Origin: a virus
Lineage: Duplodnaviria > Heunggongvirae > Uroviricota > Caudoviricetes
DNA: 64,000 nt
IMG/VR virus record: IMGVR_UViG_646564533_000005
Strand: one strand, 5' to 3'
Positions 51,452-54,161 of this stretch are shown one piece after another. Within the stretch, counting starts at the first letter, position 1. Each line of letters begins with the position of its first letter. The notes beneath the pieces are model-generated. The model searched no databases and was not told where the DNA came from. It saw only the letters and a list, made by a program, of their open reading frames with translations. A program made the translations under genes and the position numbers.

Positions 51452-51868
51452 GTGTCTCAACCACTTTCGGAAATATTGACATGGGATGATAAACAATGGG
51501 AGGTATTTGTCCATGATTGGCTTATTGTCTGTAAATCAGATGATTACCCGTGGAGCGAACGTTTGGGAGGAGCTGGAGATAAAGGTAGAGACGTTGTTGG
51601 ATATAAATCGGATCCTAACGTAGAAGGTTATTCTTGGGATAATTATCAATGCAAACTGTACAAAAAAAGTTTAGGGTTCTCTGATGTTGTAGTTGAGTTT
51701 GGAAAACTTATCTATTTTACTCTGAATGGTGATTATCCCATCCCTCAGAAGTACTTTTTTGTGGCACCCTATGATTTATCTACTACATTTTCTAATTTAT
51801 TGAAAAATAAAAACGAGCTTAAAAAAGCAGTCCTTGATTCATGGGATTCAGCAATTTCAAAAAAATAA
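51452..51868 (+). CDS. Mrr-like PD-(D/E)xK nuclease-domain protein (N-terminal segment of putative effector; GTG start with strong SD)
   Basis: GGAGDKGRDVVGY...YQCKLYKK matches the Mrr catalytic-domain signature (G-x-GD-x-G-x-D ... QCK-x-Y) as recalled; AAGGAG 9 nt upstream; frame ends at an A7 tract. Confidence 0.6.
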   Translation: MSQPLSEILTWDDKQWEVFVHDWLIVCKSDDYPWSERLGGAGDKGRDVVGYKSDPNVEGYSWDNYQCKLYKKSLGFSDVVVEFGKLIYFTLNGDYPIPQKYFFVAPYDLSTTFSNLLKNKNELKKAVLDSWDSAISKK

Positions 51869-52458
51869 CTAAAAAGATTGATATTCCATTAGATGATGAA
51901 ATAAAAAAATATATTGAGGATTTTGATTTTAGTATTTTTTACTCTCTACCCTTATCATTGATTTTAAATGATATTGCAAATACACACCTTTATTTTAAGT
52001 ACTTTAACGAGCTGTATGTCGTGAGAATCCCTCCAAATGAAATTCCAACATACAATTCAAAAAAAGAGTCTGTATATGTTAATGCACTGCTTCAAGCCTA
52101 TTCAGAGCATGGAAATAAAACTTATAGTTCTTTCTTAGAGCTTGATGATCCATACAGACGACACTTTAATAATAGTAGAAATGATTTTTATTTTGCATCT
52201 TCGCTTGAGGTTTTTGTCCGCGAAGTATTTAAAGATGATGTATTCAAAGCATTGAAATGTTACATTTCATCTTCAATTGAACCCGTCTTTTATGAAGACC
52301 ATAATTATGCATTTATTAGGTGTAATGCAGTCTTGAAGCAGGCTGTTCTGACACCAATTGCACATTCAGTACTATCAAAAATATGTGAAGCAAATGATAA
52401 AAAAGGAATATGCCATCATTTGGTTAATGATGGTGAAGTAATTTGGACGGTGAGATAA
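51841..52458 (+). CDS. probable continuation of the nuclease protein in the -1 frame (effector C-terminal domain) or separate gene
   Basis: frame switches at A7 (51859-51865); no SD before its ATG; stop overlaps the next start (TAATG). Confidence 0.45.
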   Translation: MGFSNFKKITKKIDIPLDDEIKKYIEDFDFSIFYSLPLSLILNDIANTHLYFKYFNELYVVRIPPNEIPTYNSKKESVYVNALLQAYSEHGNKTYSSFLELDDPYRRHFNNSRNDFYFASSLEVFVREVFKDDVFKALKCYISSSIEPVFYEDHNYAFIRCNAVLKQAVLTPIAHSVLSKICEANDKKGICHHLVNDGEVIWTVR

Positions 52459-52916
52459 TGGTTAGAATTTATAATTCAAGTTTAGAAGTGGCATGTCGAA
52501 TAGCGAAAGTGCTCGTCGCTATTTATCCTTCTTCATTAAGCCTTGAACGGCTTATTTGTTTTGATTTTATTTTAGTAAATCTTAAGGATTTTTTACCTGA
52601 AGAGATTAGTCTTCATCCTCCAATACCCCGTAGAGATGCTCAGTTAGCCCTAAAACGAGAGATTGTTTTAGAATCATTGGCTTTGTTGCAAGGCTATGAA
52701 CTAGCCTCAAAAATTTATACACATCGTGGTTTTGTATATAAAGCTTCTGAAAAAACATATGCATTTACAAATTCTCTACATAATGAATATGTTGCGCAGA
52801 TGGAGCATAATATAAATTTGGTGGTTAAGTTATATAGTGATATTCCTGATGAGCAGTTGCAATCAATTATAAAAAATAAAATTGGCAAATATGATATGGA
52901 ATTTAATTATGAATGA
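52458..52916 (+). CDS. small middle-component-like protein (152 aa)
   Basis: ATG overlaps the upstream stop (TAATG); size and position between effector and ATPase. Confidence 0.5.
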   Translation: MVRIYNSSLEVACRIAKVLVAIYPSSLSLERLICFDFILVNLKDFLPEEISLHPPIPRRDAQLALKREIVLESLALLQGYELASKIYTHRGFVYKASEKTYAFTNSLHNEYVAQMEHNINLVVKLYSDIPDEQLQSIIKNKIGKYDMEFNYE

Positions 52917-53388
52917 CAATTTTTTTACGTTCAGAAAAATAAAGGTAACCGGATTCAATAAATTAGATGCTATAATTGAATTTGGTTCTAAATTGACTAT
53001 TTTATATGGTGGTTCTGACTCTGGAAAAACATACATATATTATTTGATTCGATATTTATTAGGGAGTGAAAAACTAAAAAATAAAGATATCGATCATGCT
53101 CAAGGTTATGATTTAGCCTATCTGGAATTTAATTTTCAAGGTAGGGTAATGACAATTGAGAGGTCTCTTCAGGATAGCGCCCATTACAGATTATATGATT
53201 CGAGCATTGAAAATGTTAGTGAAGCTAATCTGTTGATGGTTTTTTCCAAAAGTGCTTCGTCTAAAAAGAGTTTTTCATCATACTTTTATGGTAGGTTGAA
53301 TTTCAAAGAGGCTAAAGTAAGAACAAACTTAAGTAATACTCTTCATAAATTTAATCTTAATAATGTTTTTGAATTTTTTTTGTATTGA
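52909..53388 (+). CDS. SMC/ABC-type ATPase, N-terminal head fragment with Walker A
   Basis: FRKIKVTGFNKLDAIIEFGSKLTILYGGSDSGKT: beta-strand plus P-loop GxxxxGKT; ATG overlaps the upstream stop (ATGAATGA); frame ends right after a T8 tract. Confidence 0.6.
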   Translation: MNDNFFTFRKIKVTGFNKLDAIIEFGSKLTILYGGSDSGKTYIYYLIRYLLGSEKLKNKDIDHAQGYDLAYLEFNFQGRVMTIERSLQDSAHYRLYDSSIENVSEANLLMVFSKSASSKKSFSSYFYGRLNFKEAKVRTNLSNTLHKFNLNNVFEFFLY

Positions 53389-53551
53389 TGAATTAAGAAT
53401 GTTAACTGAGAAGTCGTTAATTCTTTCTGATATTCCTAGCGAGGAGACAAAAAGAAAGTCTGAATTTAAATTCCTTTTAACTCAGAGAGATGATACTAAC
53501 TCCTTAGCAGAAAAACCAAATAAAAAAGCAAGATGTTTTTTAAAAAATTAA
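53363..53551 (+). CDS. ORF fragment in +1 frame after the T8 tract (probable continuation of the ATPase)
   Basis: frame switch at 53374-53381; ends at an in-frame TAA at 53549-53551. Confidence 0.3.
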   Translation: MFLNFFCIDELRMLTEKSLILSDIPSEETKRKSEFKFLLTQRDDTNSLAEKPNKKARCFLKN

Positions 53552-53572
53552 ATTGCAAATATTTATGAGGAA

Positions 53573-54094
53573 TTGAAAGCGCAATTAATTTATCCTGAAT
53601 ATGATCAAGTCATTGTTTCAAGAGAACTTGAGAAAGCAGAGCAAGATATTGAATCATCGAAAGATATATTGAAAGGTATTGTTGATGCACTTGATGATAA
53701 GAAGCAATTATTAAAAGAGTTAAGTGATGAATTATATTCAATCAGTGACAGGGAAAAATACTTATCATTACTCATTGAAAGATTTAGTCTTCTTAAAGAC
53801 CAATACTTTATAGATCTACAAAGAATAGATGTTGTATCACAGGCGAATTTCTATTTAAATAATTTTGCAGATATTTATTGTGAGTTCTGTAATACACCGC
53901 AAAAAAAAGAAAATGAAATATCATATGATGATTGTTTTTTGTCGTGTAATGCAGAAAAATTGAAAATCAAAAGCCAGCTGAAAGGATTAATTGAATCAAT
54001 CGGATCTAATGTTCGCGAACATGAATTAATTATGTTAAGAAAAAATGATGTTAATGAAATTTATCAAGCAGAAAAAGTGATTTTAAGACGTTAG
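53573..54094 (+). CDS. coiled-coil segment (probable ATPase arm), same frame as the preceding fragment
   Basis: heptad-rich Lys/Glu sequence; TTG start without SD; same frame as 53363..53551. Confidence 0.4.
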   Translation: MKAQLIYPEYDQVIVSRELEKAEQDIESSKDILKGIVDALDDKKQLLKELSDELYSISDREKYLSLLIERFSLLKDQYFIDLQRIDVVSQANFYLNNFADIYCEFCNTPQKKENEISYDDCFLSCNAEKLKIKSQLKGLIESIGSNVREHELIMLRKNDVNEIYQAEKVILRR

Positions 54095-54161
54095 AAGATA
54101 AAAATATAAAACAATACATTCATCTCTTGAATCACTTTATGAATATAAAGACAATCTTTTA

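Follow-up and report, generated by a model that had tools for sequence, protein, structure and literature searches.

Inherited frame breaks in a Lamassu operon of a P4-like satellite prophage, very probably the product of ordinary gene decay

Two genes of an operon in the window, the whole 64,000-nucleotide stretch of viral DNA analysed here, are interrupted by changes of reading frame and an in-frame stop. We conclude that these breaks are very probably real, inherited mutations, and that the operon (51452-54728, 3277 nt) is a multi-hit pseudogene locus, once a Lamassu system, that has undergone ordinary gene decay. The window carries five lesions: a shortening of A8 to A7 in lmuA and, in lmuB, A5 to A4, A6 to A5, T7 to T8 and a CAA to TAA nonsense change (Table 1). 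Every break position given in an earlier sequence-only reading was confirmed, as was its observation that the breaks coincide with homopolymers, with all four indels in runs of at least four bases and two in runs of at least seven. Since runs of at least four bases make up 12.5% of the operon (runs of at least seven, 1.6%), this coincidence is more than expected by chance (0.125^4, ~2e-4).

Identity and setting of the operon

By its profile and domain matches, the operon is identified as a short (type II) Lamassu, or ABC-3C, anti-phage system in the order lmuA-lmuC-lmuB; the two names denote the same thing under different nomenclatures, and in the window the ABC ATPase is in four pieces. The PADLOC LmuA, LmuC and LmuB profiles match colinearly over the fragments, the matches to CTD6 (PF20282) and MC2 (PF20288) exceed the Pfam gathering thresholds, and RefSeq gene names in near-identical genomes agree with the ABC-3C families. 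The labels "nuclease", "ATPase" and "defence operon", given earlier from the letters and translations, were right by both Pfam and PADLOC.

The organization is that of Vibrio cholerae DdmABC/LmuACB, with an effector, a small middle component and an SMC-like ATPase in the same order. Both systems have an LmuA with an N-terminal nuclease and a C-terminal domain, and an LmuB with Walker A and Walker B motifs and a coiled coil that bears a CxxC hook. The effector domains differ, that of the window being PD-(D/E)xK or Mrr-like restriction endonuclease (Pfam Mrr_cat matches two homologues) and that of the V. cholerae system Cap4. The small LmuC expected between lmuA and lmuB is present; its start overlaps the lmuA stop, and the full-length identity of its product to Xenorhabdus LmuC is 59%. 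An LmuA with a variable N-terminal effector domain and a conserved C-terminal domain is also found, with the A7 frameshift interrupting the fusion, and the SMC-like features of LmuB are recognizable as ancestry only, the present gene being broken. Unlike those of a short Lamassu system, the lmuA and lmuB genes of the window are frameshifted or truncated, so that the system is predicted to be dead. Beyond a sub-threshold TrlF ATPase, the fragments had no family matches in NCBIfam; comparison with solved structures gave nothing significant for fused LmuA, reconstructed LmuB or the LmuA profile, and a literature search on locus tags ECs0290-0293 returned nothing.

The operon belongs to Sp2, a P4-like satellite prophage of the E. 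coli O55:H7/O157:H7 clade, and occupies its int-psu defence hotspot; Rousset et al. 2022 (PMC9122126) define the P4 hotspot as the interval from int to psu. The cos of Sp2 is apparently degenerate. AT-rich cargo, with a GC content of ~0.30 against ~0.5 in P4 core genes, lies exactly between int and delta/psu. Operon peptides and accessions had no match in the supplement of Rousset et al. 2022. The P4 system of O157:H7 strain FRIK944 described there as lacking anti-phage activity was considered and rejected as the same operon, as the construct concerned, pFR98, carries two genes of a cytidine-deaminase system that belongs to another P4 element.

Table 1. Features of the operon and its borders (positions in the window)
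Feature	Position	Strand	Basis or remark
tRNA-Thr 3' end, 46-nt copy	50059-50104		
P4-type tyrosine integrase, left hotspot border	50216-51448	+	RefSeq annotation of near-identical genomes; Pfam Phage_integrase
lmuA 5' fragment, PD-(D/E)xK-type nuclease N-terminal domain, 138 codons	51452-51868	+	PADLOC LmuA PDLC03852
A7 tract, lmuA frameshift lesion	51859-51865	+	ancestral A8 = TCA AAA AAA ATA; followed by TAA 51866-68
lmuA 3' fragment (frame -1), linker and CTD6 domain	51865-52458	+	Pfam PF20282 CTD6, E=7.7e-30
lmuC (ABC-3C middle component 2), 152 aa, intact	52458-52916	+	Pfam PF20288 MC2, E=2.9e-30; PADLOC LmuC, E=3e-36
lmuB fragment 1, ATPase head N-half, Walker A GGSDSGKT 53008-53031	52909-53388	+	PADLOC LmuB PDLC03863
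T8 tract, +1 insertion lesion	53374-53381	+	ancestral T7 = GAA TTT TTT TGT
lmuB fragment 2 (frame +1)	53363-53551	+	PADLOC LmuB positions 149-199
In-frame TAA, nonsense change CAA (Gln) to TAA in lmuB	53549-53551	+	same frame as next ORF, 53573-54094
lmuB fragment 3, coiled coil with CxxC zinc hook CEFC 53879-53890	53552-54094	+	PADLOC LmuB positions 231-386
A5 tract, -1 deletion lesion in lmuB	54072-54076	+	ancestral A6
A4 tract, oldest lmuB frameshift, most likely site	54108-54111	+	ancestral A5
lmuB fragment 4, ATPase head C-half, Walker B FVVLDSP 54489-54509	54112-54728	+	PADLOC LmuB; Pfam DUF3732
Terminator-like hairpin at operon end	54755-54788	+	13-bp stem, 6 GC pairs, T-rich tail; consensus match only
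P4 delta (ogr/Delta zinc finger) and psu, right hotspot border	55138-55967	-	RefSeq; Pfam Ogr_Delta, Psu

The lmuA break and the slippery heptamer

The lmuA 5' fragment starts with GTG, with AGGAG 9 nt upstream, and matches positions 10-140 of the PADLOC profile (E=8e-41). It is 71% identical to residues 3-138 of intact Xenorhabdus LmuA and carries the nuclease motifs GAGDKGRD (51569-92) and YQCK (51644-55); G-x-GDKGRD and QCK are invariant across the alignment of homologues. As had been described, this frame (frame 2) ends at the A7 run, reading TCA AAA AAA TAA, and the -1 frame continues in a 205-codon ORF (frame 1, 51841-52458) that overlaps the 5' ORF and has no Shine-Dalgarno sequence ahead of its ATG. 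The 3' fragment matches profile positions 141-333 and is 65% identical to Xenorhabdus LmuA 138-335. One A added at A7, or a -1 slip, yields ...WDSAISKKITKK..., a sequence that matches the conserved "SISKKI(T/S)" of homologues in a gapless alignment; the junction peptide predicted for the -1 frame is (K)ITKKIDIPLDDEIK, with ...AISKK before it.

Slippage and the A8 insertion lead to the same conserved peptide (...SKKIT...). Recoding by -1 ribosomal frameshifting at A AAA AAA followed by UAA, one of the options in the sequence-only reading, or by transcriptional slippage on A7, could in principle supply some full-length LmuA. The heptamer is indeed in X XXY YYZ phase, TC[A AAA AAA] TAA with 0-frame codons AAA AAA, the 0-frame stop follows immediately, and 13 nt upstream there is a weak SD-like GGGA. 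Moreover, lmuA has no second lesion, and some adventitious slippage is expected at any A7. However, no stimulatory structure was found downstream: the folding energy of the 70 nt there is -5.6 kcal/mol (z = +0.31), and 116 of 200 shuffled sequences fold as well. In E. coli, a heptamer that lacks a stimulator lifts -1 frameshifting no more than 2-10-fold above a background of ~0.055%, and A AAA AAG, not A AAA AAA, is among the efficient motifs (PMC4066793). The -1 sites of dnaX and IS elements share the in-phase A-rich heptamer; they end in G where the window has A, and the window heptamer runs directly into a 0-frame stop and is without a downstream hairpin or pseudoknot, a clear upstream SD sequence, or conservation in homologues. 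Diverged homologues do not have the two-frame arrangement: all 80 genome loci, and the full-length matches among the 120 listed of 157 protein homologues (P0003 and P0016 in that list are partial and do not count as single full-length ORFs), are one uninterrupted ORF. Xenorhabdus has AGT AAA ATA at the heptamer site, which is not slippery; the lmuA split is therefore not a family feature. With the obligatory partner LmuB broken in every carrier as well, recoding is highly improbable in our judgement, and what stands of the proposal is the phase of the heptamer.

The lmuB breaks and the distribution of lesions

Together, the four lmuB fragments cover positions 3-608 of the PADLOC profile PDLC03863. 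Fragment 1, whose ORF starts at 52882 or 52909, matches positions 3-153 (E=1.6e-36) and also Pfam AAA_23. In agreement with the earlier description, it stops just past T8, at a TGA (53386-88) five bases beyond the run, and the +1 frame continues into fragment 2, which is colinear with Xenorhabdus LmuB from residue 152 and is separated from the next ORF by the in-frame TAA. Fragment 3 is colinear with Xenorhabdus LmuB up to residue 392. The last break, from frame 2 (TAG 54092-94) to the frame of 54162-54728, was correctly said to need two events; we place these single-base changes at A5 and A4. Judged from spacing, A4 is most likely the site of the oldest lmuB frameshift, and the switch must fall within 54101-54160. 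Fragment 4 matches positions 428-608 (E=6e-37) and is 53% identical to Xenorhabdus LmuB 401-603. One A inserted at A4 in strain 493/89 restores a 606-aa lmuB ORF, and the reconstructed protein aligns with the 604-aa Xenorhabdus LmuB over 597 residues with 0 gaps. The Xenorhabdus bovienii orthologue is intact, with genes for 335, 152 and 604 aa, and the window maps onto it colinearly with breaks exactly at the sites described. The lesions and the intact ancestral reading frames are shown by these comparisons, as is the distribution of the lesions by the counts that follow.

Alleles were counted in the 308 complete E. coli (RefSeq) records that carry the locus (megablast query for A7, 86 nt). 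A comparison of homopolymer lengths at homologous loci, suggested earlier as a check, gave A7 in 308 of 308 records, and the 88-nt region around A4 is identical in 305. At 54072, A6 is found in 493/89, DEC5B and Sakai, and A5 in the window, 2013C-4465 and RM12579 and, independently, in O157:H7 strain 2571; eight records equal the window in this region, three O157:H7 records have A5 together with an O157 SNP, and ~295 have A6. The T7 allele is carried by RM12579, DEC5B, 493/89, 2571 and Sakai. At T8, 307 of the 308 records differ from the window, the sole match being 2013C-4465; the T8-type 159-aa product also occurs in CB9615 and GCA_045750785.1, and this truncated product is indexed in 252 blocks of a public collection. 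Codon 53549-53551 is CAA in all 308 records and Gln in Xenorhabdus, and the TAA is present in CB9615 and in the Logan assembly SRR35627081.

This sharing decides against sequencing or assembly error, the explanation under which homopolymer indels or base-call errors in AT-rich DNA mask genes that are really intact. It is true that four of the five lesions lie in homopolymers, that the TAA at 53549 is in 0 of 308 RefSeq complete records, and that the ATCC 43888 assembly (CP041623.1) shows error-type frameshifts in nearly every gene of the region; being frameshifted throughout, that assembly was discounted for its variant at the A4 region. Yet the A7 and A4 states come from many laboratories and platforms, T8 is common to three genomes, and the TAA is a substitution, not an indel, and was seen again in SRR35627081, an assembly from an independent read set with one other SNP relative to the window. 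Furthermore, the window and 2013C-4465 have no homopolymer-length difference over 64 kb, and int, lmuC, delta, psu, sid and primase, which adjoin the broken genes, are intact. Because independent assemblies share them, error is refuted for all five lesion sites, and we give it almost no credence. Artificial alteration of the window, considered in view of three C to T differences from 2013C-4465, was rejected, as 49909-56388 is 100% identical to CB9615.

Phase variation of a costly defence system also had been suggested; A7 and T8 would then be contingency loci that switch it on and off at high frequency. Three lmuB runs do differ in length between strains (T7/T8, A5/A6 and, in DEC5B, A6/A7), and A6 to A5 occurred twice independently. 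Nevertheless, A7 does not vary among the 308 records, no fused A8 protein of this allele was found in 5.8 billion protein clusters, and the variable tracts sit in lmuB, a gene that all strains already have broken further downstream. Nonsense mutations are irreversible, as are IS insertions. The tract differences follow the clades and are not dispersed over closely related strains, and T8, far from toggling an ORF among close isolates, is clade-restricted. As two genes are broken in every genome, by two or more frame-breaking lesions, at least two reversions would have to coincide, and no single slip could switch the system on. Runs of 7-8 A or T are short for contingency loci in mismatch-repair-proficient E. 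coli. We regard phase variation as extremely improbable.

Inherited decay is the reading that we favor. The split operon is confined to one clade, in which it is at least 99% identical. No intact copy of the E. coli allele was found in 5.8 billion protein clusters, a "distant" blastn of 5426 E. coli genomes yielded no intact allele that had diverged, and a phage collection held relatives at only ~30% identity. Sister lineages carry independent lesions, including TTA to TAA at 53541 in 297 O157:H7 records, an additional A at 54039 in lmuB of DEC5B, IS1203 insertions in the operon of other clade members, and loss of most of the operon in strain F3113. Strain 493/89, with a single lmuB lesion, represents the least-decayed state, and the clade-wide tally is at least eight independent lmuB lesions. 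Eleven of 12 operon SNPs are nonsynonymous and one is synonymous, in line with relaxed dN/dS. With breaks relative to intact orthologues, inherited lesions nested along the O55:H7/O157:H7 phylogeny and independent sister lesions, pseudogenization, which had been proposed in one breath with phase variation, is the part of that proposal that is strongly supported.

Decay in place within a defence hotspot

In intact Lamassu, LmuA is kept as a monomer by an SMC-like LmuB2-LmuC sensor, which frees it when DNA ends are sensed; LmuA then tetramerizes through its C-terminal domain, the domain that also binds LmuB/C, and degrades DNA (PMC12663957). The window operon is predicted to be non-functional because Walker A and Walker B are on separate fragments and the frameshift parts the nuclease of LmuA from its C-terminal domain. 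In our model, two replication-slippage deletions would have been fixed before the O55:H7/O157:H7 split, A8 to A7 severing LmuA between the nuclease and CTD6 domains and A5 to A4 severing LmuB between Walker A and Walker B; we infer both the order of these oldest events and the slippage itself. In this model selection was then lifted, and more neutral lesions accumulated lineage by lineage: A6 to A5 in an O55:H7 sub-clade and, independently of it, in three O157:H7 strains, T7 to T8 in the CB9615/2013C-4465 sub-lineage, and CAA to TAA in CB9615-like strains.

Sakai lmuB (ECs_0293) is already annotated as a pseudogene. In hundreds of O157:H7/O55:H7 genomes, however, the RefSeq entries for the fragments are six or seven individual CDSs named "hypothetical protein / AAA family ATPase". 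Two pseudogenes (lmuA and lmuB) plus lmuC would be a better annotation, and defence-system censuses should not score the locus as a working Lamassu. The locus offers a clear, datable case of in-place defence decay in a P4-like satellite, two ancestral lesions being followed by at least eight later ones, and points to A/T runs of 5-8 bases in AT-rich cargo genes as preferred break points. A large survey (PMC13586616) reports that defence pseudogenes are rare in P4 hotspots, at <1% of P4 pseudogenes, and the locus is therefore atypical for its setting; the systems in these hotspots are reported to be swapped while intact, whereas this one decayed in place across a whole clade. The clade might be read as a natural time series of satellite-borne defence decay, against a "swap before decay" rule proposed for P4 hotspots.

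After the ancestral A7, no further disrupting lesion was seen in lmuA or lmuC in the genomes examined, compared with at least eight in lmuB (P ~0.01, post hoc). This imbalance could hint at residual constraint on lmuA and lmuC. It is very unlikely that the split lmuA is not quite dead, whether through trace full-length LmuA made by -1 slippage or through a selected role of the 138-aa nuclease with LmuC; if true, either would explain why ~300 genomes have no further disrupting hit in lmuA or lmuC.

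A decayed Lamassu operon in a P4-like satellite

The sequence-only reading had seen the frames of a candidate defence operon break at homopolymer tracts and one in-frame stop, and had offered three explanations: homopolymer sequencing errors, real pseudogenisation or phase variation, and recoding. We confirm the observation, which resolves to ordinary, real gene decay; progressive pseudogenisation of the operon best explains the frame breaks. The lmuA stop at A7, the lmuB stop just past T8 and the in-frame TAA between neighbouring ORFs are in the sequence as described (table), and a Shine-Dalgarno sequence, looked for in the window, is absent for the second lmuA ORF (51841-52458). 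The last lmuB break does require two single-base events to enter the frame of the ORF at 54162-54728. All four indels lie within homopolymer runs (probability by chance ~2e-4), a placement that is not chance, because runs of at least 4 bases cover just 12.5% of the operon (3277 nt) and runs of at least 7 bases 1.6%.

The fragments tile the PADLOC profiles in order, and the Pfam matches are CTD6 (E=7.7e-30) and MC2 (E=2.9e-30), both of ABC-3C systems, with AAA_23/DUF3732 at the ATPase ends. The operon is a recognisable short Lamassu/ABC-3C system whose effector is an Mrr-like REase, and its location is of a familiar kind. The operon interval is AT-rich (GC ~0.30 vs ~0.5 in the flanks) and is the int-psu defence hotspot of P4-like satellites (PMC9122126); the element is named 'prophage Sp2, P4-like phage' in the Sakai reference genome. 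In the Sakai reference annotation, lmuB (ECs_0293) is already a pseudogene; otherwise, PGAP treats each fragment as a hypothetical protein of its own. Mildly unusual are a defence pseudogene in a P4 hotspot, where such pseudogenes are reported to be rare (PMC13586616), and the restriction of later lesions to lmuB.

Features of the operon, its lesions and its surroundings
Feature	Position	Strand or frame	Remarks
tRNA-Thr, full	1016-1091		
tRNA-Thr 3' part, 46-nt copy	50059-50104		Just left of P4-type integrase
P4-type integrase	50216-51448		One border of operon interval
First lmuA ORF	51452-51868	frame 2	Ends TCA AAA AAA TAA; PADLOC LmuA PDLC03852, profile positions 10-140
A7, lmuA	51859-51865		End of frame-2 ORF; 308/308 records
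Second lmuA ORF	51841-52458	frame 1	205 codons, overlaps first; PDLC03852 positions 141-333
lmuC			Intact 152-aa ORF; full PADLOC LmuC profile
lmuB, four pieces			PADLOC LmuB PDLC03863, positions 3-153, 149-199, 231-386, 428-608
lmuB ORF	52909-53388		TGA stop five bases past T8
T8 (ancestral T7), lmuB	53374-53381		Among 308 records only 2013C-4465
lmuB, after T8		+1 frame	Continues until TAA
TAA (ancestral CAA), lmuB	53549-53551		0/308 records; present in CB9615 and Logan assembly SRR35627081
lmuB ORF	53573-54094		Shares frame with TAA
A5 (ancestral A6), lmuB	54072-54076		8 records (2013C-4465 and 7 O55:H7), plus 3 O157:H7 strains
A4, likely site of oldest lmuB frameshift	54108-54111		Region identical in 305/308 records
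P4 delta/psu/sid	55138-56716	minus	Other border of operon interval
P4 primase	58947-61337		

Intact relatives and the ancestral frames

Adding one A (or, equivalently, a -1 slip) fuses LmuA into 335 aa. We found 157 homologues with fused LmuA, the full-length ones among 120 listed being 324-381 aa; the closest among the matches listed is from Xenorhabdus bovienii (67% identity). The junction (...WDSAISKK|ITKK...) aligns without gaps to the conserved 'SISKKI(T/S)' of homologues. The Xenorhabdus locus is intact (lmuA 335 aa, lmuC 152 aa, lmuB 604 aa), and its proteins are colinear on the window by tblastn, with frame switches exactly at A7, T8 and the 54070-54110 region and a Gln of LmuB opposite the window TAA. 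The split is not a family property, since a single stop-free match spans the lmuA junction in 80/80 loci fetched from species-representative genomes. The Xenorhabdus operon, the closest intact orthologue (HG780039.1, 4690-7962), lies within a prophage, directly 3' of a terminase large subunit gene and a small HTH gene; systems of this type travel on full phages too, not on satellites alone.

Recoding by -1 slippage at A7 is suggested by an in-phase A AAA AAA heptamer with a stop codon next, but is very unlikely. The 70 nt downstream are without structure (z = +0.31), and heptamers without stimulators give frameshifting just 2-10 times the ~0.055% background in E. coli (PMC4066793). Moreover, the two-frame arrangement is not conserved in relatives, and LmuB is predicted to be dead in every carrier.

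In intact Lamassu, monomeric LmuA is sequestered by LmuB2-LmuC, and the activating tetramer forms via the LmuA C-terminal domain (PMC12663957). The A7 lesion cuts the nuclease domain off this domain, and the lmuB lesions leave Walker A (53008-31) and Walker B (54489-509) on different pieces; Lamassu function has presumably been lost in the window. If lmuB was lost first, selection for lmuA loss would be plausible, because strong expression of the system proved toxic in that study, except with a mutated LmuA nuclease (PMC12663957).

Nested lesions across the O55:H7/O157:H7 clade

Of 5426 complete E. coli genomes, 308 carry the operon. Identity among the copies is always at least 99% and all carriers are O55:H7/O157:H7-type; no diverged allele was found among the 5426. 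Short-query counts over these records, with a seven-genome alignment, give a nested lesion distribution. The nested, inherited lesions argue for real pseudogenisation. Sequencing error, by which the breaks would be assembly artefacts, is excluded, since each lesion is present in independent assemblies. Over 64 kb, the window differs from 2013C-4465 by 6 SNPs and one 12-bp indel, with no homopolymer-length difference. One of the three exceptions at the A4 region was examined, O157:H7 ATCC 43888 (CP041623.1); this assembly is frameshifted throughout, with int, both lmuA pieces, lmuC, psu and sid all flagged 'frameshifted', and is a picture of genuine homopolymer assembly error, in contrast to the window.

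Phase variation, paired with pseudogenisation in the sequence-only reading, is likewise excluded. Homopolymer lengths in homologous loci, a comparison that reading had proposed, show A7 to be invariant (308/308 records); no A8 protein of the window's allele occurs among 5.8 billion clusters, at least 2 reversions would be needed per genome, and several lesions are irreversible.

Pseudogenisation can be followed strain by strain. Window 49909-56388 is 100% identical to O55:H7 CB9615 (CP001846.1, 351437-357916); with so few differences from 2013C-4465 as well, CB9615 or a near-clone is very likely the source of the window. The SRR35627081 assembly, which shares the TAA, has a single base change elsewhere relative to the window. 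CB9615 and GCA_045750785.1 also have the 159-aa T8 product, for which the public collection has 252 index blocks. A5 in the three O157:H7 strains is an independent recurrence, because they carry the O157 SNP. Other lineages have TTA->TAA at 53541 (297 O157:H7 records), +A at 54039 (DEC5B), IS1203 insertions, or deletion of most of the operon (F3113). The least decayed strain, 493/89, has a single lmuB lesion; inserting one A into its A4 run gives a 606-aa ORF, gapless over 597 residues with Xenorhabdus LmuB. In the seven genomes, 11/12 operon SNPs are nonsynonymous, two of these nonsense. After the ancestral lesions, at least 8 independent disrupting events occurred in the clade loci compared, all in lmuB and none in lmuA or lmuC (P ~0.01, post hoc); lmuB makes up only 56% of the operon, and 58% of the bases that lie in homopolymer runs of at least 5 are in this gene.

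Satellite and prophage surroundings

Sp2 lies behind a ~49-kb lambdoid prophage at tRNA-Thr. Given the full tRNA-Thr and the 46-nt copy of its 3' part, the satellite is integrated in tandem behind this prophage, at the same att site. The P2/P4 cos 19-mer, taken as GGCGAGGCGGGGAAAGCAC, was not found with up to 3 mismatches anywhere in the window. The cos-proximal stretch by psu (54900-54950) resembles a degenerate copy, with a ~6-nt gap and substitutions relative to P4 cos in the PMC9122126 supplement. Sp2 may no longer be packageable, which would account for its cargo having decayed rather than been swapped.

Decay also affects further accessory genes close to the end of the prophage: in the annotation of the near-identical 2013C-4465, the T3SS effector EspW carries a frameshift and an internal stop, and a 'type III secretion system protein' is likewise interrupted by a stop (window 43761-44376 and 48275-49636, minus strand). 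The 12 bp at window 1892-1903 (CCTGTCCCGGCT), missing from 2013C-4465, are an in-frame difference within the lambdoid prophage integrase gene. Just past the P4 primase, at the satellite's other end, an AT-rich (GC 0.28-0.34) hypothetical ORF of 318 aa (61470-62426, minus strand) is a possible second cargo or defence gene. In the AT-rich region past the primase, window 62891 is G vs T in 2013C-4465, within a G-rich stretch (GGGGGGTGTG vs GGGGTGTGTG).
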